DNA from: Candidatus Aminicenantes bacterium
GTDB lineage: Bacteria > Acidobacteriota > Aminicenantia > UBA2199
Direction: 5' to 3'
DNA length: 64,000 bases
Assembly (NCBI GenBank): GCA_963827565.1
Contig: CAWHBG010000003.1
Location: 867,543-931,542 of the forward strand
Each line of letters starts with the position of its first letter. The first letter of the stretch is position 1. Position numbers and translations under genes: made by a program. The notes beneath the pieces were generated by a model. It did no database searches and was not told the origin of the DNA. It saw nothing but the letters and a program-made list of their open reading frames with translations. This document shows positions 3,013 to 48,122 of this stretch, one piece after another.

Positions 3013-3032
3013 GAAGTTACCTGTCCCCTTTT
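3013..3032 (-). repeat. REP-like element copy (singleton)
   Basis: gaagttacctgtcccctttt; contains the invariant core CCTGTCCCCTTTT. Intergenic, upstream of deaD. Confidence 0.85.
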
Positions 3033-4983: not shown

Positions 4984-5003
4984 GAAGGTGCCTGTCCCCT
5001 TTT
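4984..5003 (-). repeat. REP-like element copy (singleton)
   Basis: gaaggtgcctgtcccctttt, 40 nt after the deaD stop. Confidence 0.85.
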
Positions 5004-5096
5004 GAACAGGATTATCAAATGCGAATAGAAGTACTTCTGAACAGAAATCCATCAATAACCGTATGCTAGATATAAGATTTATATGGAGGATTTAAA

Positions 5097-6248
5097 ATGA
5101 AAACAAAATCGCTTAGGAATAATATTTTTTATTTTTTGATATCGGTTTTATTTTTGGTTGTAATTTTTTTATTTTTATTATCAATCAATCTGCGGGGAGA
5201 GATCGCGAATAAAGACAAACCTGAAAAGGGGACAGGTACCTTTCATATATCGGAACTATGGCAGGTGAGTGAAGGTGAAGGGAATCCATTCGGGAATCTC
5301 AGCAGGGGAATCCTTGTCTCTAAAGACGGCATCCTTTGCTGTTTGGACGATAAGCTTGAACGGTTCTTTCTTTTTGACAAAGACGGAAAATTAATAAAGG
5401 GATTTGGTAAGAAGGGTGAAGGGCCTGGTGAAATAAAATTTTTCAGGCAGGCAAGTTTGTATAATGCCGGGGATAAGATCGCGATTCAGGATCTGGACAG
5501 AATACACTATTTTGACTGGAATGGGAATTTCATTGAGTCTATCCCGAATCAGAGACCACGGAGCCCCATACTATTTCTGAACCGTTATGAGTTCATAACA
5601 GCTCCCAATAATATCCTCGCAGTCCCGGGAGGCATTGCCGAAGTAAAATTGGTCAATCTGAAAACCGGTAAAGAGAAACTGATCACAAAGTTTTCCATAT
5701 TCAAGGGGGGGGCAATTCAGGATGGAAATAATCAGGCTTCGTTAATTGCCAATGGGCTGACACCGCTTTTTGAACTCGGGAAATATAAAGATCGTCTTTA
5801 CTACGGGGTCAGCGATAAATATAGGATCGAAATTTCAGACATGAAGGGGAATGTGATCAGCAGTTTCGGACTGAAAAGGGAAAAATCCAAAGTGACTGAG
5901 GAGGAAAAAGTAGAGCCGATTCTCCGGGGGACAAAAGGGTTGGCACCAGAAGAATTAATAAGAACTCTGGCAAAAAAATTACCAAATGAAGAGACCTATT
6001 ATACGGATATTCAGTCAATTAATGATCAGATATGGGTTTTTGTCACGAACTGGATCAGAACTAATTCCAGGCAAATTGATATTTTTTCACCGGAAGGGGA
6101 ATATTTATATCGCCGCTTCATTAAGATCGATAAAGAGGAGTCTATATTTTCCAAACCGGTGATCAATGGTAATTCAGTTTTTCTGGTTATTCAGAACGAA
6201 GATGACGAATTCCGAGTTGCAAAATATGCTATTGATCTGCCGGAATAG
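5097..6248 (+). CDS. 6-bladed beta-propeller-like exported/anchored protein
   Basis: 383 aa with an N-terminal TM/signal. Repeated ..DG.I.V.D/..F..F D..G.. blade-like pattern. N-terminus parallels the partial gene at 1-215. Contains a full REP copy in-frame at 5224-5243. Confidence 0.5.
   Translation: MKTKSLRNNIFYFLISVLFLVVIFLFLLSINLRGEIANKDKPEKGTGTFHISELWQVSEGEGNPFGNLSRGILVSKDGILCCLDDKLERFFLFDKDGKLIKGFGKKGEGPGEIKFFRQASLYNAGDKIAIQDLDRIHYFDWNGNFIESIPNQRPRSPILFLNRYEFITAPNNILAVPGGIAEVKLVNLKTGKEKLITKFSIFKGGAIQDGNNQASLIANGLTPLFELGKYKDRLYYGVSDKYRIEISDMKGNVISSFGLKREKSKVTEEEKVEPILRGTKGLAPEELIRTLAKKLPNEETYYTDIQSINDQIWVFVTNWIRTNSRQIDIFSPEGEYLYRRFIKIDKEESIFSKPVINGNSVFLVIQNEDDEFRVAKYAIDLPE
5224..5243 (+). 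repeat. REP-like element copy embedded in a CDS
   Basis: aaaaggggacaggtaccttt, a perfect consensus copy. Read in frame as (E)KGTGTF within the 5097-6248 ORF. Confidence 0.8.
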
Positions 6249-12554: not shown

Positions 12555-13124
12555 ATGAAAAAATTAGTTGCAATGATGGTTGCGGTTGTGCTAGTTCTGT
12601 CGCTCGGCACAGGCTTAAAAGCGGAAGATAAAGAACTTAACCTTCTCGCAAATCTCGGTTTTGCATTTTCAGATGTGGAGGGGTTGTTTCTTGACCTTGG
12701 CGTGGAAAAACAATTCAAACAGAATCTTTTTGCTCTTCTTTATCTGGATTATTACTTTAATCCGACTGGGTTGAACGAAAGTGGTAGTCTTTACGGTGTT
12801 GGATATGATGTAAGTTTAACATTGATGGGGATTAACCTTGCAGCTGCTTATAAGAGGGAATTAAATGAGAAGATAAAATGGTTTGTCCGTGCCGGAGTAT
12901 TACTTGCTCTTTCAAGGTTGAAGGTGACTGGATCGTATATGGGAGTTTCGTTATCTGACTCTACATCTGCAACCGATTTTGGTCTGAGTGCAGGTGGTGG
13001 TATTGAATATATACTACAAAAAAAACTTGCTCTAGTCGCTGGCGTGGCTATAAGTATGATATTTAGCGATGGAACCGGAACCTGGTTTAAAATATTTGCC
13101 GGAATTAACTATAAACTAAAATAG
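12555..13124 (+). CDS. outer-membrane beta-barrel protein (OmpW/porin-family-like)
   Basis: 189 aa with a signal peptide. Alternating beta-strand pattern ending ..FAGINYKLK. AGGGAGG RBS. Confidence 0.5.
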   Translation: MKKLVAMMVAVVLVLSLGTGLKAEDKELNLLANLGFAFSDVEGLFLDLGVEKQFKQNLFALLYLDYYFNPTGLNESGSLYGVGYDVSLTLMGINLAAAYKRELNEKIKWFVRAGVLLALSRLKVTGSYMGVSLSDSTSATDFGLSAGGGIEYILQKKLALVAGVAISMIFSDGTGTWFKIFAGINYKLK

Positions 13125-13224: not shown

Positions 13225-13821
13225 ATGATCAATATCGTATATATCCATGGGTTTATGTCCGCCGGGAGAGGTGGAAAATATGAAGCATTGAAGCGGCGCT
13301 ACCGGAAGGGATTCAATATTTTATCCCCTTCATTCAGTGATTCAATAGTTAGCGCAAAAAAGGAATTGAATGTTTTCATGGAAAAAGAAGAGATGAATAG
13401 CGAAGGTATAGTTTGTCTCATCGGGACATCTCTTGGCGGTTTCTATGCCCGCTATCTTGCATCAATTTATAAGCTCAGGGCGATTCTGATAAATCCGGTT
13501 CTGAATCCATCTGCACATATGAAAAAATATATTGGTACGAAACTTACTAATTTTAAGACAGAAAAAGAGTTTGTTTTTACCCAGCATGATGTCAATGCCC
13601 TTGAATCAATGGAAAGAGAGATTCGGGATAATATAGATGAAGATTCCGTATATCTCCCTGTCATTGCTAACGATGATGATGTCATTGATAAAAACATAGT
13701 CGAGAAAGAATTTAATAACATTATCTATATTGATGATGACCACCAGTTCAACTCTGCCTTCGAGCCGTTTATAAGAAGGGAAGATGTAAGGGGTTTTATA
13801 ACAGATACTTATGGGTTGTAA
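13225..13821 (+). CDS. YqiA-like alpha/beta hydrolase (UPF0227 esterase family)
   Basis: 198 aa. Contains IVYIHGFMSAG and the nucleophile elbow GTSLGGFYA. Confidence 0.65.
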   Translation: MINIVYIHGFMSAGRGGKYEALKRRYRKGFNILSPSFSDSIVSAKKELNVFMEKEEMNSEGIVCLIGTSLGGFYARYLASIYKLRAILINPVLNPSAHMKKYIGTKLTNFKTEKEFVFTQHDVNALESMEREIRDNIDEDSVYLPVIANDDDVIDKNIVEKEFNNIIYIDDDHQFNSAFEPFIRREDVRGFITDTYGL

Positions 13822-13824
13822 AAA

Positions 13825-13894
13825 TTGAGATCAAGGCAGGGGTAATCTGGAGGATTGTGTGCGGGCCGACACACGAACCCTGCCCCGATCTCAA
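13825..13894 (-). terminator. GC-rich nested hairpin, probable terminator of the VWA gene
   Basis: ttgagatc/gatctcaa and ggcaggg/ccctgcc form a 15-bp interrupted outer stem. Inside is a gtgtg-cgggccga-cacac hairpin. On the minus strand it is followed by TTTTT (complement of 13820-13824). It lies 50 nt after the stop of 13945-15669. Confidence 0.45.
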
Positions 13895-13944
13895 AAGCCA
13901 CATTGAAAACAAGAAACCATAATAAACCTAAAGGAGGTTCATAT

Positions 13945-15761: not shown

Positions 15762-15781
15762 AAAAGGGGACAGGTACCTTT
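15762..15781 (+). repeat. REP-like element copy (singleton)
   Basis: aaaaggggacaggtaccttt, a perfect consensus copy, intergenic. Confidence 0.85.
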
Positions 15782-16622: not shown

Positions 16623-16675
16623 AAAAGGGGACAGGTACTTTTGAGTTTATATCGGAATGATGCCTGTCCCCTTTT
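16623..16675. repeat. inverted REP doublet
   Basis: 16623-16642 aaaaggggacaggtactttt and 16656-16675 aatgatgcctgtcccctttt, 13-nt spacer. Sits between the ABC operon end and the HTH gene start. Confidence 0.85.
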
Positions 16676-19062: not shown

Positions 19063-20557
19063 CTAAATTTTCGATTTTTTCACGGTGTCAAACTCATCAA
19101 CGATCTCTTTTGACGGTAATTTGTCAAGGAGGCTTGCCAGGATGATTGCAAGGGCCGAAAACAGGAAGCCTGGAACGATCTCATACAGGTCGAATATTCC
19201 CCCGGAAATATTTTTCCATATCAAGACAGTGACCCCACCGGTAAAGATCCCTGAAATTGCACCATTGGCAGTCATCCTTTTCCAGAAAAGTGATAGGATC
19301 ACAACAGGGCCGAAGGTTGCACCAAATCCTGCCCATGCATACGCTACCAGCTCAAGTACACTGCTCTCCGGATTAAGAGCAATCATAAATGCAATAGCGG
19401 CAACAAGAATTACTGATAAACGGCTGACCCATACAAGCTCCTTGTCTCCTGGAGTTCTCTTCAGTACTATCCGGTACAGATCTTCAGTAATTGCGGATGA
19501 AGTTACAAGTAATTGAGAGTCAGCGGTACTCATGACTGCTGCAAGAATTGCGGCCAGGAGAATTCCGCCTATAAGAGGTGTGGTCAATTGACTCACAAGA
19601 ACCATAAATACTGTTTCCGATGCGGCTTTCCCGACCAGAGGGTTTTCTGTTAAAAGCACTCTTCCTACAATTCCGACTACAACTGCAGCAGATAAACTTA
19701 TTATTACCCAACCCATGGCAATACGTCTGGCTTTTTTTATTTTATCAGAAGAGCTGATCGCCATAAATCTGGCAAGTATATGTGGCTGCCCGAAATATCC
19801 GAATCCCCACGCCACAAGGGACAATACTGGAATAAATTTTAAATTCTTTCCCGAGGTTGAAGTAAATATATTCAGAAGTTCCGGGTTTATTACTTTGGCT
19901 TTAGCAATCGTCTGTTCAAACCCGCCCAATGCGGATACGCCAATGACGGGAATTATAATAATTGCAAAGAACATCAGCATTCCCTGAAAAAAATCTGTCC
20001 AACTGACGGCCATGAATCCGCCGAGAAATGTATAGCCGATGATCACAAATACCCCGATCGAAAGTGCAAAGATATAAGGAATATTAAAAACGGTATTAAA
20101 AAGTTTGGCCCCTGCGACAAATCCAGAAGATGTGTATAAGGAGAAAGAAGATTATAATAAAAACTGCAGAGAGTACTCTCAATATCCCGCTTTTATCCCG
20201 GAAACGGTTCTCAAAAAACACAGGGAGGGTAATTGAATTGCCGGCGATCTGAGTATATTTTCTCAATCTCTTTGCAATAAATTTCCAGTTGAGATAGGTC
20301 CCGACCATCAAACCCAGGGCGATCCATCCGGCTTCTAGTCCTGCAAGATATGCATATCCGGGCAAACCCAGGAGCAGCCAGCCGCTCATGTCCGATGCCT
20401 GTGCGCTGAGTGATGTCACCCATGCATTCAGCCCCCTTCCTCCGAGGACATAATCAGAAAGATTTTTTGTTCTGTTATAAAAATACCAGCCGATGCCCAT
20501 CATGAAAATAAGATAAATTGCGAATGAAATGAAAGTTCCTGCACTTGCTCCTGACAT
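19063..20557 (-). pseudogene. putP: sodium/proline symporter PutP (SSS family), frame-disrupted by one 1-nt indel near 20130-20136
   Basis: ORF 20096-20623 gives MSGASAGTFISFAIYLIFMMGIGWYFY..SLSAQASDMSGWLLLGLPGYAY. Shifting one base after ..FFLL gives YTSSGFVAGAKLFNTVFNIPYIFALSIGVFVIIGYTFLGGFMAVSWTDFFQG, which joins ORF 19063-20046 seamlessly. ATG at 20557 with a GGAG RBS. Confidence 0.85.
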
Positions 20558-20635
20558 GATTAATCTCCGGAATTGATTTAAAAAAATATAATAAACATTA
20601 CAATAAATTATATCAAGCGACAATATGTGAAATCC

Positions 20636-20693
20636 AAAAGGGGACAGATACCTTTAACATTTTAAAAAGGTGATATGGTACCTGTCCCCTTTT
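20636..20693. repeat. inverted REP doublet
   Basis: 20636-20655 aaaaggggacagataccttt and 20674-20693 tatggtacctgtcccctttt, 18-nt spacer. Lies in the divergent region between putP and the surface-protein gene. Confidence 0.85.
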
Positions 20694-20972: not shown

Positions 20973-23822
20973 ATGAAGAAGAGATTTTATTTTATAGTTA
21001 TTTGGTGTATTTTTTTTATCCAATTAAATGCATCTGTTAAAATGGTTGGAAGTATTGAAGAATTGACCGGATTGAAAATAAGTTGTCATCCTCATTTTTC
21101 AATTATTGTTGAATTTCCAAAGGATATAACATATTAAAAGCCAGACAAATGTGGAGAAAATGAGGCGGAGTGGACAGTTGATCATGATCTTAATTTGTTA
21201 TGGGCTCAACCAGATAACCTGGGCAGTCATGACTGTACAATTAAAGTTGTAATAGATGCGTATAAAGATATTTTACTCAGGTTAAGAGTTGAAAAGGAAT
21301 CCAAAAATCTGATCCATACAATTGTATTGAAAAAAGCCGTTTTTGTACATAAGAACGATATGAAAGATACAGCTATTATTGAGAATGGTAATTCACCGGA
21401 AAGGAAAATAAAAAAAGGTAAGAATGAAAATGCTGTTCCAGAAAATTCGTTCGAAATTTTAAATATAAGTGTTAAAGGAAATGAAGATTCTGAGATTACA
21501 AAAAGAATTACTGAGAGTAATCCTGATATAGGTGTTTTAGATAATTCAGATACCAATAAATCTCCATTTAAACTTGAATCATACTTTTCTCTTTCCGGGG
21601 GTACTCAGAGTCTTAAAGGTTCCTCTTTCATGATGAATGGTGAGATTATAGTTGCCGGAAAAAATAAAAGCGGAATATTTTTTCAGGGAGCAGGAAAAAC
21701 CGTTATAAATAATATGTTAAAGCAGTATGGTTTTTCTGTTGGTGCAGGATTTGAACCGGGTAAATTGGGGTTTTTCCTGTTTGGTGATCTTCTTTTACAT
21801 AAGTTCGGTGATGAATTCAATTCTACGACCCATTTTCAGATTAGACCATCATTCCGGTACAGATTGTCGGATAAGGTTCATTTGTCAGGCTTCTAGGCAA
21901 TTCCACTCGGTGCATGGCAGTACACAGGTGTTGAAGTTCCAGGAGAACCAGGATTCGGATATCTATAATAAATCATTATCTCATGTGGGGGTTGATTTTT
22001 CAGTTTACTTAAAGAATATGTTCGTTGATCTCCGGGCATTGTTTGCTGAGGGATCTGCATTTGGGATTGATCTTAAGGCAGGATATGAGTTTATCAGAAA
22101 AATATTTGTAACAATTAATTATATGTATCAGACAAGTGGTGACTATGAATATGTGGACGGAATTTCTAATAGAAGTCAGAATCGGTATTGGCGTTACTTT
22201 TAATATGAGAAATTTTGAAAACAGAGTAAAGAACAGGATTATTTTCAGGCCGGATTATCCGATGGTTATTGTTGATAAAAAAGAACTGGATGAAAGAGAT
22301 TCAGATATAGAACCTAAAATCAGCCTAATCGGGACTCCAACTACCGGTTATGCTCCCCTTGATGTAAGTTTTACTGCTAGCCACAAGGGATTTAAAGGTA
22401 GTAATGTAGAAATAACCTGGTATTTTAATACAACATATTCAACTACTACGAACAAAAAAGATAGTGGATTTACCTATACGACTCCAGGTTCTTATGACTG
22501 CTATGTTGAGGGTAAGGATGAATTTGGGAATTTTGCTAAGAGTAATACCGTAACAATAACTGTTCTCGACACGATAACGGATGATGATGAATTTACAATA
22601 TCCTCAAGTGTTTCAGGTGGGACTGGAATTATAACTCCGGAGGGGACAACAATAGTAAATCTTAATCAGGATCAGAAATACGCAATGACTCCCGGAGATG
22701 GATGGTTTGTAAGTAAAGTTCTTGTTGACGGTAAAAGCGTTGGTGCAGTGACGGAGTACATTTTCAAAAAGGTTTCTGCAAATCACACGATCTCTGTTGA
22801 ATTTACTGACTCAGAGTCGGAAAGTTATACTGTTTCGGCAAGTTCCGGTACTGGGGGTTCGATCTCTCCGAATGGAAATATTACTGTAACCGCAGGAGAT
22901 TCAATAGAATTCACAATGACAGCAGACGATGGATATGAATTGGATACTTTAAAGGTTGATGGGAGTAATGTAAGTGTATCTGGAAATACTTTTACTCTCA
23001 CAAATATCCAAAAAGACCAGACTGTTGCAGTGACATGGAAATTAAAAACTTATACTGTTACTGGAACGGTAAGAAATAGTCAGTATGGAACAATTTCTCC
23101 GGTTTCAGCCATAGTTGAACATGGAAGTGATGCAGTAATTAGTTTCACTCCTGAAGATGGTAACAAAGAGACAATAAGGTATTGGATAAACGGAACAGTA
23201 ACTAATGCCAAAGGGAGTACAGGAGTTACCATCAGCAATGTGACTTCCAACCAAACTGTAGAAGTTGAGTTTGACTGGATATATTACAATATCACGGTTC
23301 GTCTTGTGAAAATCGGAGATTATTCTAATTTAGCCAGTGCTACACTGAACCCATCAGCAGGGACCTATTCCTACAGGGCGGGATCCAATGCGACATTTAA
23401 TTGTAATTTGGCAACCAATACTTAGTTACTCGTGTTGATATAAATGGAAGAACGACTACAGACGGGGTAAATGTAACATTTGTTAATGTTCAGAGAAATC
23501 ATTATCTTGAATTTTATATAAGAAGGGGGTAGTTGGCCTAAATCTTAATATCTACGGATGTTTTTACGGCAGTATATGGGATAATTGGGGTCATTCAACA
23601 AACAATGGGGGAACCAAAACGTGGACAATTCCTGCAGGAGAACCAGTAACAGTACATTTTTCACCGGCCACACCATATCCAGCCAATGTGGATCATTACA
23701 TATTAACAACACAGAACGGCCAGCTTATATGGCTTCCCGCACAATGGACAATTAACAGTCCAAAAGCAGGTGATTGCCTGCATGTTAAGTGTGTCGATGA
23801 AGACGGAAACATTATAATGTGA
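20973..23822 (+). pseudogene. large surface protein (signal peptide, beta-barrel-like region, PKD domain, 4 InlB-B-repeat-like domains, C-terminal domain), multiply frame-disrupted
   Basis: Starts MKKRFYFIVIWCIFFIQLNA, with an in-frame TAA at 21135-21137. ORFs 21195-21896, 21727-22203 and 22136-23425 overlap in shifting frames. The barrel-like part reads ..GVDFSVYLKNMFVDLRALFAEGSAFGIDLKAGYEF..RIGIGVTFNM. PKD-like segment at about 22307-22567 (GYAPLDVSFTA..YTTPGSYDCYVEGKDEFGN). About 75-aa repeats run from about 22592 to about 23510 (YTVSASSGTGGSISPNG.., YTVTGTV..GTISP..). After further shifts at about 23415 and about 23525, the reading continues to a TGA at 23820-23822. Confidence 0.55.
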
Positions 23823-25510: not shown

Positions 25511-27043
25511 CTATTTCAAAACCGGTGATACAAATGCCGGCATATCTGAGATTGCTCCGTTTTTATCAATAACTCCGACTGAAAAAGAGATTCCGGAGAG
25601 TTCTTTTGCCCGGAATTCATAAGTTCTTCCATCTTCCGGGTTCACACGATCGACCTCAGAGACCGAATTCCCCTCTTTTTTGTATATTATATACTTATCA
25701 ATTCTTTTGTCCTTAGAGGGCGATTCTGACCAATTAAGCTTGATAATATACTCTTTTAAGAAGACGCTCTGGTTCAAAAACGCTTCTGCAGAAACATTTG
25801 TTAGGGGGAAGTCCTTCGGGTCGTTTATAACCTGCGTATGGATAAAAATTCAGCATCATATATTGTTCAGGATTCAAATAGATCATCAATATTTGTAAGA
25901 GAGTAATATCCATTGCTGTTTCCGCCCCACCCGAAATTAATGTGAACATGATCTAATATCCATTATAAATTCTATATCCATCAATAACTACCTGATGAGG
26001 TTGGCCATACAAAACTGAAACTTCAGGAGCTATAGACAAAATTGTAGGTAAATTTTTGTCAATTTGAAACTTTGCTTGATTAAACCAAGCCTTGTCATTA
26101 GGAAAATTTAAACTGCAAATTTGATACATATCATCAGAATACAATAGGTTGGTAATCAGTTCTGGATTATATCCACCAATTGCGGCGCTGATCCCCAAAC
26201 TCCATAAGACATTTCAAAAGTGCGACACCGACATCAAACATAGGGTTGCGACTGCCATGTTTTTCTTCATCTGTGGAATCGGTACCGACTCTATCTTTCA
26301 TTTCCACCATTTATATTCTTTATCAAAGTTTGCAGTTAAAGTCTGTTTGCTTAATTATCATAATATGTTGTTCAGATCCTTTTCCTCTGACTGGCCATTC
26401 AAAATAATTAATAACTTGAGCAAAAGCAGTTGCCACACAGCCAGTTGGTGTTTTTCCGTAACCATCTATGACAGGGTAATAATATTATATGGTTCATCTT
26501 GATCCCATTTGGTGATTATAAGAGGTTCTACTTCTTGGTGTCGATTTGAACATTTGTAGCAGAAAGATCACTTATATGAGATATGACTTTATAATAAGCT
26601 TATTGATAAGGTTCTGGTTATTACCTTTCCAAATTCAATTGATATCCGGAATGTTTTTCAATTCAGCGATTTTTTTATGATAGTTTTGATAATTTTCAAA
26701 AAGCAATATTCTATAAAAGGATACTCTCCGGAAGTATTGAATCGTTATTAAGAGAATACATTTTTATAGGTGGCAGATAATCCTGCCCTGAGATAATCAC
26801 ATATCCTTTTGGATAGAAATCAAATACATAGGCAACCAAAATATTTTCTCTGACAATTTCCTGTCCTTTCATAACCCGGACCTGATCACCAAAATCTTCT
26901 TCAAGGATCTCGGTCCAGTTCTCAGCAATTATCTGAGCTTCATTAAAAGTGATTTCCCTGGCATAAAAGATACCGGCAATCAGGATGATCGATAACAAAA
27001 TTGTAAATGAGTTTTTTAAGCATATTGTTCTTTCTCCTTGCAA
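25511..27043 (-). pseudogene. peptidase C10 (streptopain-like cysteine protease) with N-terminal Spi-type pro/inhibitor domain and C-terminal Ig/FN3-like domain, multiply frame-disrupted
   Basis: Minus-strand pieces in shifting frames: 26711-27043 signal plus ..ITFNEAQIIAENW..VAYVFDFYPKGYVIISGQDYLPPIKMYS (Spi-like); about 26500 ..TKWDQDEPYN..; about 26440 ..GKTPTGCVATAFAQVINYFEWP (catalytic Cys); 25953-26198 ..GQPHQVVIDGY (His); about 25900-25950 DHVHINFGWGGNSNGYYSL; 25511-25777 C-terminal beta domain. Confidence 0.75.
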
Positions 27044-27301
27044 TTAACAAAATTAGATTACTCCAGGAGTCAAAAGTGATGAACCATGAGGCTGGATACA
27101 TTTTCTCCCTACAAAATATTTAGTTAGGAACATCAGAGGGGGCTTCTATATAGATTGCCCGGAATTAGAGATATCATTTTATACCAGTAATACAAATGGC
27201 AATATATAAGATACTGCTTCATTATATTTCCCTCAAAGTGTATTTTAGTAAAACCTGTTGTAGAATCAATAAATAATTAAATTTATTTTAAATTATTTAT
27301 T

Positions 27302-27321
27302 AAAAGGGGACAGGCACCTTT
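27302..27321 (+). repeat. REP-like element copy (5' flank of RAYT)
   Basis: aaaaggggacaggcaccttt. Confidence 0.85.
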
Positions 27322-27378
27322 TTGTTAATATTGTTGAAATTAGTAAAATTATATATTATATCTATATTGAAATAAATT

Positions 27379-28281
27379 ATGGCAAGATTAAGAAGAATAA
27401 AAGTTAAAGATTCTGATGCATATTATCATGTGATGTCAAGAACTGTAGGCCAGGAATTTCTCCTACAAAATAGTGAAAAAGATAAATTTATTGAAATAAT
27501 GTTTGATTTGTCAAAATTATTCTTTGTAAAAATAATAGGATTTTCAGTGATGAGCAATCACTTTCATCTACTAATAAAAATGGAAAGTAATGAGTCTTAT
27601 ACTGATGAAGATATATTAGACAGGTTAGAATTCTATTATAAAAGAGAATTAGTGCTTAGTAAATGTGAGATTAATAAATATAGAGAATCATTAGGCGATA
27701 TTTCGAATTGCATCAAATTTATAAAACAGAAGTTTTCTTTATGGTTTAACAAGGTTAATAACCGAAAGGGACATTTTTGGTCAGATCGTTTTAAGTCAGT
27801 TTTAATAGAAAGTGGGGAAAGCTTATTAAATTGCTTAGCTTATATCGATTTAAATTCAGTTAGAGCAAACTTAACTGAGCTTCCTGAAGAGTATAAATGG
27901 AGCAGTGTTTATTATAGAACAAAAAAAAATGATCATTTATCATCACTTAGTTTTGATGGAATAAATACAAATTCAGGTTGTGACTTTTTATCTGAATATT
28001 TGATGTATTTATATTTTGCAGGAGATATCACCGAAAAAAATAGAATAAAAGAGAAATCAATAAAAAATGATAATAGTTTTGTAATAAAGAGAGGAGTTTT
28101 TAGTAAAAAGCAAAATACTTTTACAAATTGTATGGTTATGGGATCATTTAATTTTATTCAGACCTCATATAAAATGTTTGGAAATTCAATTCTTACAAAG
28201 AATAGAAAACAAGCATATAATGCAGAATTTTCAGATAATATATATTCAGTCCGACGAAAATATACACAAAGTGTTCATTAA
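27379..28281 (+). CDS. REP-associated tyrosine transposase (RAYT; IS200/IS605 Y1 HUH family, COG1943-like)
   Basis: 300 aa, intact. N-terminal AYYHVMSRTVGQEFLL; HUH motif SNHFHLLIKM; GHFWSDRFKSVLIES; catalytic-Tyr helix LAYIDLNSVRANL (equivalent to YIxxNPVRAGL). Confidence 0.8.
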   Translation: MARLRRIKVKDSDAYYHVMSRTVGQEFLLQNSEKDKFIEIMFDLSKLFFVKIIGFSVMSNHFHLLIKMESNESYTDEDILDRLEFYYKRELVLSKCEINKYRESLGDISNCIKFIKQKFSLWFNKVNNRKGHFWSDRFKSVLIESGESLLNCLAYIDLNSVRANLTELPEEYKWSSVYYRTKKNDHLSSLSFDGINTNSGCDFLSEYLMYLYFAGDITEKNRIKEKSIKNDNSFVIKRGVFSKKQNTFTNCMVMGSFNFIQTSYKMFGNSILTKNRKQAYNAEFSDNIYSVRRKYTQSVH

Positions 28282-28455
28282 CTGAAATTAACTTCTTTTT
28301 TTTGATTAAGTCTATAAATATAAAAAAATTCTCAAAATTTATAAAAAATTTACAATTACTCAATAATTTTAAAGATAAAACAAATATTTTCTTTTTGATT
28401 TACTAATTTATTTTTGCTAATTCAAAACAAAATTCTTTAAAATGATAATAATTGT

Positions 28456-28475
28456 AAAAGTGCCTGTCCCCTTTT
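28456..28475 (-). repeat. REP-like element copy (3' flank of RAYT)
   Basis: aaaagtgcctgtcccctttt. Confidence 0.85.
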
Positions 28476-28686: not shown

Positions 28687-29922
28687 GTGTTAAAGAAATT
28701 AAGGTCCTTGATTTTAGATGGAAATGATCTTGCAGAACACTATGAGAAAAAAGGGGATTTAAATAAGGCATATAAAGAATATACAAAACAGAACAATTAT
28801 AAAAAGGCGGCAAATGTTCTTGAAAAAATGAATGATTGGCATAGTGCAGCCAACATTTATATTGAAAAAAATGAGGTTGACCTGGCAAGAAGAGCAATTG
28901 AAAGTTGTTTTAATAAAGGCAAGGTTTGGGAATCTTTCAACTTATCGAATGGAAAAAAAGTTACAATTGAAGAGTGGCTGAAAGATAACAATCAGACCCA
29001 GAGGTTCGTCAGGTATGTTCACAACACCAAGAGGCTTAATCAAAATGGCACACCATTGATAATTGTTCTTGCAGATAAATTAAAAAATATTGAAGAGTAT
29101 AAGAATGCGGCCCAACTATATAATAATGCTTACTTTTTGGTAAATAAAAATGTGTTAAATAAAAGACTTATCAGGCATGAAGAATGGCTTCTTAGTGCTG
29201 CTGAATGTTATTCAAAAATAGGTAAATTTGATGAAGCAGCTGAATGTATGAAAGAGCTTATTGTGACTGAAGTTGAGATTGGGACAGAGTTTTCCGGGGG
29301 ATATAAAGTAAATCCATATCGAAATTATAAGGTTATGCTCGAAAAAGCCAGGGAATATAAATCTCTCCCTGAGCTACTGGATCTATTGGAAGATTTTGAT
29401 CCGTTTAATATTTCTTATAATCTATTAAAAATGAATGAAGTTGAGTTATCAAAAGCACATTTTTTCAAATATTTCGGAAGAGTAGTAAAGAAAAATTTGA
29501 CAGAGCAGGAAAGAGAAGTGAGAAATGAAAAGATAAGTTATTGTCTAAATCAATATATTATTTACCATAGGGAAAGGAAGGAATATCTGTTGGCTGCTGA
29601 AATAGCTTTGTTAAATTCTCAGAAAAAAATTGCTTCTGATCTTTATCAACTGGCAAAAGCAGCAAAACAAGTTGCAAAGAGTGAAGCTGTCAATTTAAAA
29701 AATATTCAAATGAAGGCTGAAAATAAAACAGAAGAGGCCGGAGAAGCTAAATCTGAAGCGGAAGTTGATTTGAAATGCCATCATTGTGGTGAACTTGTAG
29801 AGGAAGAATGGGAATATTGTCCAAATTGTGAAAATTCACTTATGTTTAACATGTGTACCTGTGGAGAAAAAATCCAATCGCGCTGGAAAGTGTGCCCTGC
29901 CTGCGGCAAACATATAGAATAA
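28687..29922 (+). CDS. hypothetical helical-repeat protein with C-terminal double zinc ribbon
   Basis: 411 aa, GTG start after GAGAGG. N-terminal TPR-like helices (LAEHYEKKGDLNKAYKEYTKQNNYKKAANVLEKM..). C-terminus CHHCGELVEEEWEYCPNCENSL...CTCGEKIQSRWKVCPACGKHI, i.e. two CxxC/CxC...CxxC knuckle pairs. Confidence 0.5.
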   Translation: MLKKLRSLILDGNDLAEHYEKKGDLNKAYKEYTKQNNYKKAANVLEKMNDWHSAANIYIEKNEVDLARRAIESCFNKGKVWESFNLSNGKKVTIEEWLKDNNQTQRFVRYVHNTKRLNQNGTPLIIVLADKLKNIEEYKNAAQLYNNAYFLVNKNVLNKRLIRHEEWLLSAAECYSKIGKFDEAAECMKELIVTEVEIGTEFSGGYKVNPYRNYKVMLEKAREYKSLPELLDLLEDFDPFNISYNLLKMNEVELSKAHFFKYFGRVVKKNLTEQEREVRNEKISYCLNQYIIYHRERKEYLLAAEIALLNSQKKIASDLYQLAKAAKQVAKSEAVNLKNIQMKAENKTEEAGEAKSEAEVDLKCHHCGELVEEEWEYCPNCENSLMFNMCTCGEKIQSRWKVCPACGKHIE

Positions 29923-29967: not shown

Positions 29968-29987
29968 AAAGGTGCCTGTCCCCTTTT
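29968..29987 (-). repeat. REP-like element copy (singleton between convergent genes)
   Basis: aaaggtgcctgtcccctttt. Confidence 0.85.
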
Positions 29988-30018: not shown

Positions 30019-31606
30019 TTATTTGTATTTGCGGATCCCTGAACCGAAATGGAATTTATCTGAGATCGTTATAGGGAGTTTTCCCCTCATTTTAGATTTT
30101 CCCGATAAAACAGAGAAAAGTGCTTCTATCTGGATATCTCTTGAACCATAGGTCAAAACTATTGTTTCTGCATTACTTAAATATTCGGCAATATAAGGGC
30201 TGTTTGCACAGACAATTATTGAATCATTTCTTAATTCCAATATATCCTTAGCGATGGATTTATTCGGGATAGTTGTTCCAGGAATGATCGAAAATAATAA
30301 TATGATCATATTCTAAAATTCTCTTTTCTCCGCATCAGTGATTTTTAAATTATTTTCAGGGAGGAGTATTTCACACTCAGAAAAGTACCTGTCCCCAATT
30401 GACCAAAGTGTATTTTCATCTTTACCATTATTTATGTTTGCTGAATGGGAACTTTTTCTCTGATCAATGATCAGTACACTTTTTCTCCTGTCAAGAGGGA
30501 TCAATCCTATTCCGTTTTTTAAGCACAGTAATTGATTCCCTTGCGATTTTTTTCTCCAGTTTAATATGTTTTCTGAGTGATGGTTTCCTGAATCTCTCCC
30601 ATATGTTTCTTTTTTTTATACTTTTCTTCAGTGTCGCTACTCTCCTCAGGGATTGATAAATCCTTGAAGCGCTTACCTCACCAAACTCAACTTTAGATCT
30701 CATCAAGCTAATCAACTCTTTTTGTAATGATAATGAGTGGCTGACAGAAAAAACATCGAGGGAACTGATATTAAATCCCTCAATTACTTTTTCTGATGAA
30801 AAATTATCTTTTACGGCACTCATCTCAATACAGTCTGAAAATAATACTCCGCGAAAATTCATTGATTCTCGGAGAAGTTCAACGGTAATCTCAGGTGAGA
30901 AGGTTGCAAGGTTGTCTGATATAAGGGGAAATCTGACATGTGCTGTCATTAATGAATTAACACCTTCTCTGATCAGTTTTGTGAATGGCGGAAGGTTGAT
31001 TTCTGAAAGGAAGTTATTGTCAATCTCTGATATCGGGATCTCAAGGTGAGAATCTGCATCTGCATGTCCATGTCCGGGAAAATGTTTTCCGCAACTGAGA
31101 ATTTTTCCTTTTTTCAATCCAAGAAAAAATTCAGTTCCGTATTCAGACACAATAGACGGATCATCAGAAAAAGACCTTATCCCGATAACCGGATTTTCCG
31201 GTTTTGAATTAACATCGAGAACCGGTGCAAAGACCCCGTCTATACCAAGAGATCTCATCTCTTTTCCAATGATCTTTCCCGCTATCCCTGCATTCTTTTT
31301 TTTTCCGGTTGCTGCTAATGCCATATGGGAAACAATTGTACTTCCAGCTTCTCCCAACCTTACTATCGGACCGCCTTCCTGGTCAATGAATATAAGAGGC
31401 GATGGTTTAGTCAGTTTGTGTATTTCCGAAGTTAATTGCCTGAGTTGACCAGGAGATTTATAATTTCTTGAAAAAAGTATTACAAACCCGACTTTCTCAT
31501 CATGTATCAGAGATCTTTCCTCTTCTGAAAGAGAAGTCCCTTTAACCCCTATCATGAATAATTGCCCGATCATTTCATTCGGCTTGGACATTTTCGGATT
31601 GCCCAT
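30019..31606 (-). pseudogene. nagZ: glycoside hydrolase family 3 (NagZ/beta-N-acetylhexosaminidase-like, two-domain form), frame-disrupted
   Basis: The N-terminal domain is intact (KHFPGHGHADADSHLEIP, IDQEGG). There is a frameshift in an A6 run at about 30515-30520: removing one A turns ..VLKKRNRIDPS* into ..VLKNGIGLIPLDRRKSVLIIDQ. An in-frame TAG sits at 30313-30315, followed in frame by N-MIILLFSIIPG... A REP remnant lies at 30381-30396. Confidence 0.8.
30381..30396 (-). repeat. partial REP-like sequence inside the GH3 reading frame
   Basis: aaaagtacctgtcccc matches 16 nt of the 20-nt element but lacks the TTTT end. Read on the minus strand as ..IGDRYFS.. Confidence 0.45.
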
Positions 31607-32846: not shown

Positions 32847-33531
32847 ATGGAAATAACTTACCTTGCGGATGACATTCCTTTTCCTGACCCCGCATATGCT
32901 GATAAAAGTGGTCTGATTGCTGTAGGAGGATCATTAACAATTCCAAGATTGATTGAAGCATATTCAAAAGGAATATTTCCCTGGTATTCTGAGGGCGATC
33001 CTGTTTTATGGTGGTCACCCGATCCCAGAGTGCTTCTGTTCCCTGAAAATTTACACGTTTCAAGAAAGATGAAAATTTTGTTGAGAAAGGGAATTTTCAG
33101 AGTTACTGTTAATAGCGAATTTGATAGAGTTATTGAAATGTGCGGCATGCCCAGGAGAAACGGGGAAGGAACCTGGATCACCGAAGAGATGAAAACAGCA
33201 TATACACAACTTCATAAAATGGGGTTTGCCCATTCTGTTGAAGTGTGGAGCGGTGATACCTTGCCGGAGGATTATATGGGGTAAGTTTCGGGAAAATGTT
33301 CTTCGGGGAATCAATGTTCTCCTAGTTTCCAATTCATCAAAATTCGGATTTATCAAACTAACAGAGTTTTTAAGGAAAAGAAAATTCTTATTTATAGATT
33401 GCCAGGTAGATACAGATCATCTCAGGTCGCTTGGAGCAGTTTCTGTAAGCCGGAAGAAATTTTTAGAAATGCTTGGGAATGGGATAAATATTAACAGAAT
33501 GAATAAAACAAAATTTCCGCCATTTCTGTAA
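32847..33531 (+). pseudogene. aat: leucyl/phenylalanyl-tRNA--protein transferase, frame-disrupted by two shifts about 55 nt apart
   Basis: Frame 0: ..PVLWWSPDPRVLLFPE..GTWITEEMKTAYTQLHKMGFAHSVEVWSGDTL. Frame 2 (33263-33322): AGGLYGVSFGKMFFGESMFS. Frame 1: VSNSSKFGFIKLTEFLRKRKFLFIDCQVDTDHLRSLGA. All three are colinear with the Aat family consensus. Confidence 0.85.
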
Positions 33532-48039: not shown

Positions 48040-48122
48040 AAAAGGGGACAGGCACCTTTTCAGTTTAATTCAGAATTTGAATTTCAGAAATTATAAATCA
48101 GATAAGGTACCTGTCCCCTTTT
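48040..48122. repeat. inverted REP doublet with long spacer
   Basis: 48040-48059 aaaaggggacaggcaccttt and 48103-48122 taaggtacctgtcccctttt, 43-nt AT-rich spacer containing ttcagaa twice. Confidence 0.85.

Follow-up and report, generated by a model that had tools for sequence, protein, structure and literature searches.

What kind of system is formed by a transposase-like gene and a short repeat that both brackets the gene and recurs in the intergenic DNA around it? This question is raised by a locus in a 64-kb stretch of Candidatus Aminicenantes DNA (64,000 nt of contig CAWHBG010000003.1; Aminicenantes-like, GC content 37%), referred to here as the window, to which the repeat and gene counts below apply. 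The locus encodes a 300-residue HUH/Y1 protein between two inverted copies of the 20-nt unit AAAAGGGGACAGGCAC(C/T)TTT, and the initial annotation described it as an intact REP-associated tyrosine transposase (RAYT) gene with flanking repetitive extragenic palindromic (REP) sequences, that is, as a candidate active REPtron. Our analysis favors a different reading, to which we assign a probability of roughly 0.7. In this reading, the locus is a TIRtron whose nuclease recognizes GGGGACAGG, units derived from the flanks have spread into the intergenic DNA of one clade, and doublets of these units form terminator-like hairpins. The features of the locus are as follows.

27268-27278 / 27291-27301: perfect AT inverted repeat, arms of 11 bp around a 12-nt spacer, directly adjacent to the upstream repeat
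27302..27321 (+): left flank repeat, C variant, AAAAGGGGACAGGCACCTTT, 57 nt before the start codon
27334..27362 (+): putative Y1 promoter, TTGAAA, 17-nt spacer, TATATC, from the four-way alignment and the cross-phylum consensus
27379..28281 (+): intact TIRYT-type (RAYT-like) HUH/Y1 gene, 300 aa, ATG start, with motifs AYYHVMSR, HFHLLIKM, and YIDLNSVRANL
28456..28475 (-): right flank repeat, AAAAGGGGACAGGCACTTTT, 174 nt past the stop codon

The open reading frame (ORF) and its three motifs are present as annotated, and so are the inverted flank repeats, their distances from the gene, and the difference between them at 1/20 positions. The AT palindrome is also real. An inverted repeat at least equal to it appeared in 9/1000 shuffles of the intergenic region, its arms are only partly conserved in a four-way alignment of the syntenic orthologues (also used for the flanks, promoter, and repeat sites), and its significance is uncertain. 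The position of the putative promoter is conserved across the syntenic orthologues in the same alignment.

The protein was compared with several models and structures. The Pfam model Y1_Tnp (PF01797) matches it with 46.8 bits (cut-off 23) in two stretches with an insertion between them, while the NCBIfam RAYT equivalog REP_Tyr_transpos (NF047646) scores 56.9 bits, under its cut-off of 80. The protein is not IS200-like, as it reaches 16.4 bits with the NCBIfam IS200 model (cut-off 55). Six residues do not vary across 29 aligned homologues: H17, H61, H63, Y155, N159, and R162. H61-F-H63 is the HUH motif and Y155, within YIDLNS, the catalytic tyrosine. Between the HUH strand and the core helix that follows it, the protein has a helical insertion of ~30-45 residues; an extension of ~120 residues follows the WSS motif at the C terminus, where a Pfam scan detected no HTH or DnaA_C domain. 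A single-sequence search of the PDB gave nothing relevant and a profile search gave marginal matches to ISDra2 (E ~1). Because these sequence-only searches were uninformative, structure prediction and a fold search were needed to place the protein. The AlphaFold model built from the alignment of 29 homologues (mean pLDDT 84.6) has as its top PDB match 4er8_A, the E. coli TnpA(REP) with a REP hairpin (E 5.8e-7, target TM 0.69), followed by the IS608, ISDra2, and IS200 TnpA proteins at ~2e-4 to 1e-3; the entries matched besides 4er8 include 2xm3, 2vjv, and 2f4f.

A group of RAYT-like genes with terminal inverted repeats, not GTAG REPs, has been described by Di Nocera, De Gregorio, and Rocco (2013; BMC Genomics 14:522; PMC3733652), who named the proteins TIRYTs and the units TIRtrons; GGGGWSAS is common to many of these repeats, and their spacing from the gene is similar. 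We rebuilt 11 TIRYT and 3 RAYT sequences from Additional file 5 of that study. The profile of the window family scored 36-90 bits on the 11 published TIRYTs versus 7.6-18.6 bits on the RAYTs of E. coli, P. fluorescens, and S. maltophilia, and the window sequence alone scored 27-57 bits on the TIRYTs versus -0.0 to 10 bits on the RAYTs. Because the family profile scores TIRYTs far above RAYTs, the protein is, on sequence comparison, a TIRYT and not a canonical RAYT. The earlier assignment thus holds for an RAYT-like HUH/Y1 protein, as seen in the Pfam match and the 4er8 fold, but not for membership in the canonical RAYT family. The N-terminal MxRxxR, (M/L)xNHxHLL, GHxW, Y-x3-NP, and WSS signatures are shared with TIRYTs, whereas the Aminicenantes-like host, which is unlisted in the 2013 study, the extra insertion, and the dense repeat are particular to the window. 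The locus as a whole resembles a TIRtron in having a Y1 gene and inverted non-GTAG repeats that fit GGGGWSAS, at a similar distance and in the form of singles and dimers.

Quentin, Siguier, Chandler, and Fichant (2018; PMC6006769) treat TIRYTs broadly as TnpA(Y1) subclass 2.1, equivalent to Bertels group 1, and describe a beta3-alphaC insertion in the related subclass 2.3. The motifs of the window family (NHFH, W[SG]D, YIDLN[PS], and WSS, with an insertion after the HUH strand) would place the protein between these subclasses, which as a motif comparison makes it 2.1/2.3-like. It shares with them Y-x3-NP, the NH[YF]H form of the HuH motif, an SS motif after the core, and a wide distribution including delta-proteobacteria, as well as the long C-terminal tail of subclass 2.1 and the beta3-alphaC insertion of subclass 2.3. 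It differs in that the W motif is W[SG]D and not W[EQ], the Y motif is YIDLN[PS], and the flank is dispersed. The supplements of the 2018 study contained no matches for the taxa searched.

The repeat itself also fits the TIRYT pattern. Both flanks contain GGGGACAG, in agreement with the published GGGGWSAS consensus, and the repeat unit AAAAGGGGACAGGYACCTTT has no GTAG head. The annotation was correct that the repeat is unrelated to GTAG-headed REPs, but the type is not new. The 12-nt core GGGGACAGGCAC has 21 matches in the window at ≤2 mismatches compared with 1.7 expected, and 0/100 shuffles reach 21. At ≤4 mismatches there are 16 full 20-nt units, 15 between genes and 1 coding. The exact flanking 16-mer occurs 5 times in the 64 kb, while the unit family (written AAAAGGGGACAGGYAC) has ~15 members, a density of ~1 per 4 kb. 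The Y1 gene is single-copy in the same 64 kb. Units are found as singles and as inverted doublets, of which four have the +/- orientation (16623/16656, 20636/20674, 46824/46855, and 48040/48103). Apart from the gene flanks, the sites are the following, with positions in relatives given by contig locus (L-numbers denote contig loci of relatives and homologues).

3013..3032 (-): single unit, 2 mismatches, in a divergent intergenic region
4984..5243: two divergent units 220 nt apart, 4984-5003 (-) and 5224-5243 (+)
15762..15781 (+): single unit, orthologous to L001 556-575, 19/20 identical in a poorly conserved spacer
16623..16675: inverted doublet (REPIN-like), 16623-16642 (+) / 16656-16675 (-), downstream of an ABC-2 permease gene; -16.2 kcal/mol, z -7.0
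20636..20693: inverted doublet, L001 counterpart 5371/5410; -14.4 kcal/mol, z -4.3
29968..29987 (-): single unit between convergent genes, orthologous site filled in L001, L002, and L083
46824..46874: perfect inverted doublet with a 20-bp stem and A-run and T-run flanks, between co-directional genes; -22.2 kcal/mol, z -8.6
48040..48122: inverted doublet with a 43-nt spacer; -22 kcal/mol, z -7.6

Overall, the doublets fold at -14 to -22 kcal/mol (z -4 to -8.6) into hairpins of 15-20 bp that are flanked by A- or T-runs. As read from the ORF map, 6/9 repeat sites lie at gene 3' ends and the remainder lie in divergent regions. Because the doublets fold into A-/T-run-flanked hairpins and are mostly at gene 3' ends, they probably act as terminators or mRNA-end structures. 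A scan with promoter and terminator consensus sequences was uninformative in the AT-rich window, with 20 promoter-like sites versus 13 expected and 0 terminators, and an Rfam search of the locus returned no family, only spurious matches to miRNA or snoRNA hairpins.

Two sites require separate comment. The pair at 4984/5224 is arranged tail-to-tail, opposite to the orientation of the doublets and of the TIRtron, and its unit at 5224-5243 falls inside a mechanically called ORF (5097-6248), the true start of which is probably downstream, near 5262. The stretch 30381-30400 (-) was considered as an intragenic repeat insertion and rejected, since it has an in-frame homologue in the GH3 coding sequence (WSIGDRYFS) in L001, diverged in L002. 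The 16-nt exact match to the repeat, GGGGACAGGTACTTTT, is present in the window at 30381-30400 (-) and in L001 at 12914-12933, and the L002 form of the same codons is GGGAACCGTCTCTTTT.

Comparison with relatives defines how the gene and its repeats have been inherited. The nearest homologues are proteins from metagenome-assembled genomes (MAGs) named Aminicenantes or Acidobacteriota, and identity to the window Y1 protein is 73% for L002, about 68-69% for L001, 62% for L083, 53% for L084, and 49% for L087. The gene order C10 peptidase, Y1, TPR-Zn-ribbon protein, GH3 is common to the window, L001, and L002; the L083 contig starts at the Y1 gene and keeps the downstream order. All four repeat-bearing relatives considered have the gene at this locus, L001, L002, and L083 among them. 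Proteins encoded by the neighboring genes are 80-96% identical between the window and L001. By the Nei-Gojobori method applied to window and L001 genes, the synonymous divergence (dS) of Y1 is 1.13 versus 0.94-1.69 for its neighbors, and the ratio of nonsynonymous to synonymous divergence (dN/dS) is 0.18 versus 0.02-0.12. The shared synteny, the neighbor-like dS, and a dN/dS of ~0.18 indicate that the gene is vertically inherited under purifying selection. No gene nearby evolves faster, and Y1 does not resemble an insertion sequence (IS).

The repeats have been inherited along with the gene. AAAAGGGGACAGGCA is the conserved upstream flank in L001, L002, L083, L084, and L087, and the inverted downstream flank is kept in the same five loci. 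Sites common to the window and L001 are 15762 (L001 556), 16623/16656 (1438), 20636/20674 (5371/5410), and both Y1 flanks, and the site at 29968 corresponds to L001 12539, L002 3760, and L083 2782. Where the window and L001 differ, the differences consist of decay of a second unit or of a doublet versus a single state. Repeat columns are ~82% identical at orthologous sites (a value in which one misaligned site, pairwise 2/20, was replaced by its four-way value of 18/20) compared with 38% for other intergenic columns. Since ~82% has been kept despite saturation of synonymous sites between the window and L001, the units are either constrained or continually homogenized. The description of the REPtron as active is unsupported, because every repeat site in the syntenic 23 kb is shared with this saturated relative.

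Dispersal of the repeat is specific to the clade of the window, L001, L002, and L083. L084 and L087 have unrelated gene contexts, yet GGGGACAGGCAC is present upstream (+) and downstream (-) of their genes and is not dispersed across their 13-21 kb, and other Aminicenantes loci (L209-L212) contain no copies of the repeat; these loci outside the clade carry flank copies alone or none. According to PMC3733652, some genomes contain the inverted repeats as moderately abundant families made up of singles and dimers, and REP-like families were proposed to arise from such inverted repeats. The clade-limited dispersal fits the statement that repeated inverted-repeat families occur in some TIRYT hosts only.

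The upstream element is found at homologous genes in other phyla. Among the matches listed, homologues on genome contigs were ≤45% identical and none came from the window's clade; the 44 homologue loci considered are the matches listed, including the window and its orthologues L001 and L002. Of these loci, 29/44 have an exact GGGACAGG on the coding strand no more than 300 nt before the start of the gene, mostly at a distance of 53-152 nt. The distant listed loci (26-45% identity) belong to Desulfobacterota, anammox Planctomycetota, Verrucomicrobiota, Thermodesulfobacteriota, Binatia, and Polaribacter. Across phyla, the consensus reads AAAagGGGACAGGCaAaTTAT.cTTGACA (also written GGGACAGGCaAaTTAT.cTTGACA), and a TTGACA-like hexamer, with 5 or 6 positions matching, follows the motif by 8-19 nt in 15/27 anchored loci listed. 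An inverted downstream copy is clear in L014, L017, L023, L025, L028, and L075, whereas the downstream copies of L029 and L039 are direct, not inverted. In some distant members, the upstream copies are in tandem or the motif is a variant. In the Verrucomicrobiota homologues (L034-L043, e.g., L042 and L043), other motifs are found in tandem upstream, for example GGCGTTTAAAATTAACC three times and GGACCTTAAAAGGGTC twice. These tandem motifs resemble operator or iteron arrays, which suggests that the upstream site may be a protein-binding array that covaries with the protein.

The element was also found as doublets in metagenomes, where single 16-mer matches are partly at chance level in so large a collection and the inverted doublets alone are meaningful. 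Inverted doublets were observed at 16/120 loci, 13 at 55-69% GC and 3 at 41-45% GC, and a Y1 homologue was encoded at 1/120. Most of these doublets have the unit form AAAAGGGGACAGGTACNTTTT, and 8 share the spacer GTGCGAAGCACCCTCCGGGCCGTTCCGGC or a close variant. The resulting doublet of ~75 nt, AAAAGGGGACAGGTACNTTTT-GTGCGAAGCACCCTCCGGGCCGTTCCGGC-inverted unit, recurs in L095, L103, L134, L136, L137, L150, L171, and L189, which have 58-65% GC and come from different samples, and these high-GC doublets share a 21-nt unit with the 37%-GC window. For 12 doublet-bearing contigs, Rfam returned no family, only spurious miRNA or snoRNA hairpin matches.

Taken as a TIRtron, the locus would work as follows. 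A chromosomal, vertically inherited TIRYT gene would be bracketed by inverted cognate elements, each consisting of AAAAGGGGACAGGCA and a variable tail. If it acts as E. coli TnpA(REP) and IS608 TnpA do, the protein may recognize the GGGGACAGG-containing element on single-stranded DNA, and cleavage and rejoining via Tyr155, assisted by a metal ion that His61 and His63 coordinate, could then copy or move units. In about half of the homologue loci that have the motif, a -35-like hexamer of the gene's own promoter follows the upstream copy after 8-19 nt, and binding at this copy would plausibly autoregulate the gene as well. We infer DNA binding, cleavage, mobilization, terminator function, and autoregulation from these comparisons.

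Several results weigh against this reading. A lone unit folds poorly as DNA (-2 to -4 kcal/mol, with a 6-bp AAAAGG/CCTTTT stem), and the cross-phylum part GGGACAGGCAAATTAT is not palindromic; for these reasons, the hairpin-recognition mode of RAYT and IS608 may be inapplicable to the element. The gene flanks are always the C variant (GGCA), whereas the dispersed units are mostly the T variant (GGTACC). No insertion polymorphism was found, all five repeat sites of the syntenic 23 kb being common to the window and L001, and because all sites are shared there is no direct evidence that units ever moved, recently or before. Quentin et al. found no REP-like repeats for subclasses 2.1 and 2.3, and the two papers with the term TIRYT returned by our full-text literature search contain no functional or biochemical study of one. 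Moreover, the Y1 leader of the window (27363-27378, TATATTGAAATAAATT followed by ATG) has no recognizable Shine-Dalgarno sequence, and would be ~10 nt long if the putative -10 box is right; its orthologues have GGGAG in L001 (9985-10000) and GGGGG in L083 (190-205).

These points leave room for other explanations. One is that the whole 1.17-kb unit is mobile as an autonomous IS and that the small repeats are its deletion derivatives, resembling miniature inverted-repeat transposable elements. Terminal inverted repeats around one gene are the classic IS layout, the distant homologues L084 and L087 lie in unrelated contexts, and Bertels et al. (2017) counted group 1, with a mean of 12 copies of its flanking 16-mer, among the two most IS-like RAYT groups. 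In addition, L003 (43% identity) encodes a second Y1 paralogue that has a separate GGGACAGG-plus-TTGACA module, and it has a solo left-end remnant, so that two copies and the solo end are found within 4 kb, and multiple Y1 loci are present in Desulfoluna and in a Desulfobacteraceae MAG among the matches listed. Because of the L003 paralogue and remnant and the several Desulfoluna loci, the family is more IS-like in some lineages. For the window, however, the gene occupies the same syntenic position at 62-73% identity, has a dS equal to that of its neighbors, and is single-copy, and the paralogues elsewhere are diverged, not near-identical. No empty site or target-site duplication was found through homologues of the TPR/Zn-ribbon neighbor, the neighborhood being unrelated beyond the clade. 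While the protein shares the HUH/Y1 catalytic core fold of the IS200/IS605 TnpA proteins (IS608, ISDra2), it has Y-x3-NP (YIDLNS/P) in place of Y-x3-Q, and its flanks are inverted copies instead of same-strand subterminal hairpins; no tnpB was found among the ORFs of the window. We consider an autonomous IS unlikely at this locus.

In L003 (regions 13529-13720 and 13776-13924), the solo module keeps the first ~25 nt of the 5' leader and then continues into unrelated sequence, at the end of which is a strong intrinsic-terminator hairpin. The module may be what is left of a left end, or it may drive a small transcript; Rfam assigned it no family (spurious hairpin matches only) and ARAGORN identified no tRNA or tmRNA in it.

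Equally improbable, in our estimate, is that the repeats are host regulatory or terminator elements and that Y1 is a domesticated, self-regulating DNA-binding protein that mobilizes nothing. Such a role would suit the positional conservation and constraint of the repeat sites, the resemblance of the doublets to bidirectional terminators, and the frequent adjacency across phyla of the upstream copy to a -35-like hexamer, sometimes with operator-like tandem copies; most homologue loci, moreover, have gene-proximal copies only. On the other hand, the HUH histidines and the catalytic tyrosine are invariant in 29 diverse homologues, which argues that nuclease chemistry is retained, and some process placed ~14 near-identical 20-mers, the first 15 bases of which equal the flanks, at unrelated intergenic sites. 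A purely regulatory element is also at odds with the REPIN-like doublets that the same unit forms in unrelated high-GC contigs.

Least probable is the canonical, currently active REPtron, in which an E. coli- or Pseudomonas-type RAYT mobilizes hairpin REPs or REPINs: although the gene lies between inverted copies of a multicopy intergenic repeat, has the E. coli RAYT as its top fold match, scores higher with the RAYT hidden Markov model than with that of IS200, and is accompanied by REPIN-like doublets, its RAYT and profile scores fall on the wrong side, the repeats lack a GT[AG]G head, a strong lone-unit fold, and insertion polymorphism, and the extra insertion and C-terminal extension are absent from RAYTs of 150-165 residues.

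The TIRtron nevertheless has features in common with the REPIN-RAYT systems of E. coli (TnpA(REP)/YafM, 4ER8) and of Pseudomonas groups 2 and 3 (Nunvar 2010; Bertels and Rainey 2011; Ton-Hoang 2012), namely a vertically inherited Y1 gene bracketed by an inverted dispersed repeat, long doublet hairpins, and the closest solved fold. The differences are the protein family, the missing GTAG head, the weak lone hairpin, and the fact that most relatives of the window protein are without a dispersed repeat family. A tentative and rather doubtful extension of the TIRtron reading is that the GGGGACAGG element and the TIRYT form an ancient cross-phylum system comparable to REPIN-RAYT, which would autoregulate and, in some lineages, seed terminator hairpins. 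On that view, the unit AAAAGGGGACAGGYACNTTTT (16-21 nt) would have been kept from the 37%-GC Aminicenantes to 61-69%-GC bacteria, in which it forms conserved 75-nt inverted doublets. If this were true, the clade of the window would represent a TIRYT caught after expansion, a state not found for this branch by Quentin et al. in 2018.

The surroundings of the gene were described as decayed, with Y1 as the sole intact gene between decayed stretches. Frameshifts do interrupt the C10 peptidase gene upstream and the GH3 gene farther downstream, but the next downstream gene, 28687-29922, encodes an uninterrupted protein of 411 aa with 87% identity to its orthologue. Relative to L001, the window has frameshifts in the following genes.

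19063-20623: SSF transporter
20973-23416: gene with a 735-aa L001 orthologue
25511-27043: C10 peptidase
30019-31606: GH3, with three 1-bp indels, one in a poly-A run
32847-33531: Leu/Phe-tRNA protein transferase (aat)

The MreB, MreC, and ABC genes are intact in the window; in L001, two genes are themselves split, C10 and one of 381 aa. The frameshifts could be real gene decay or indel errors of long-read assembly, and with frameshifts this dense, an intact gene of 900 nt is unremarkable in itself.

Papers from 2013 and 2018 already describe the arrangement, the protein group, and the flank consensus, and the locus is not a new kind of system. Its additions are modest: a new host lineage, a dense and positionally conserved repeat family, a 15-nt core that extends across phyla, and the frequent adjacency of this core to a -35-like hexamer. 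Among RAYT-like groups, TIRYTs are the largest (Bertels group 1; Quentin subclass 2.1 and relatives), and the locus supplies oligonucleotides (AAAAGGGGACAGGCACCTTTT, its T variant, and the cross-phylum AAAGGGGACAGGCAAATTAT) with which questions of binding, cleavage, and regulation by TIRYTs via GGGGACAGG can be addressed. It also provides a comparative case in which one clade has dense, constrained repeats while its sister lineages have the two flanks only, and it thereby bears on the proposal of Di Nocera et al. that inverted repeats can give rise to REP-like families.

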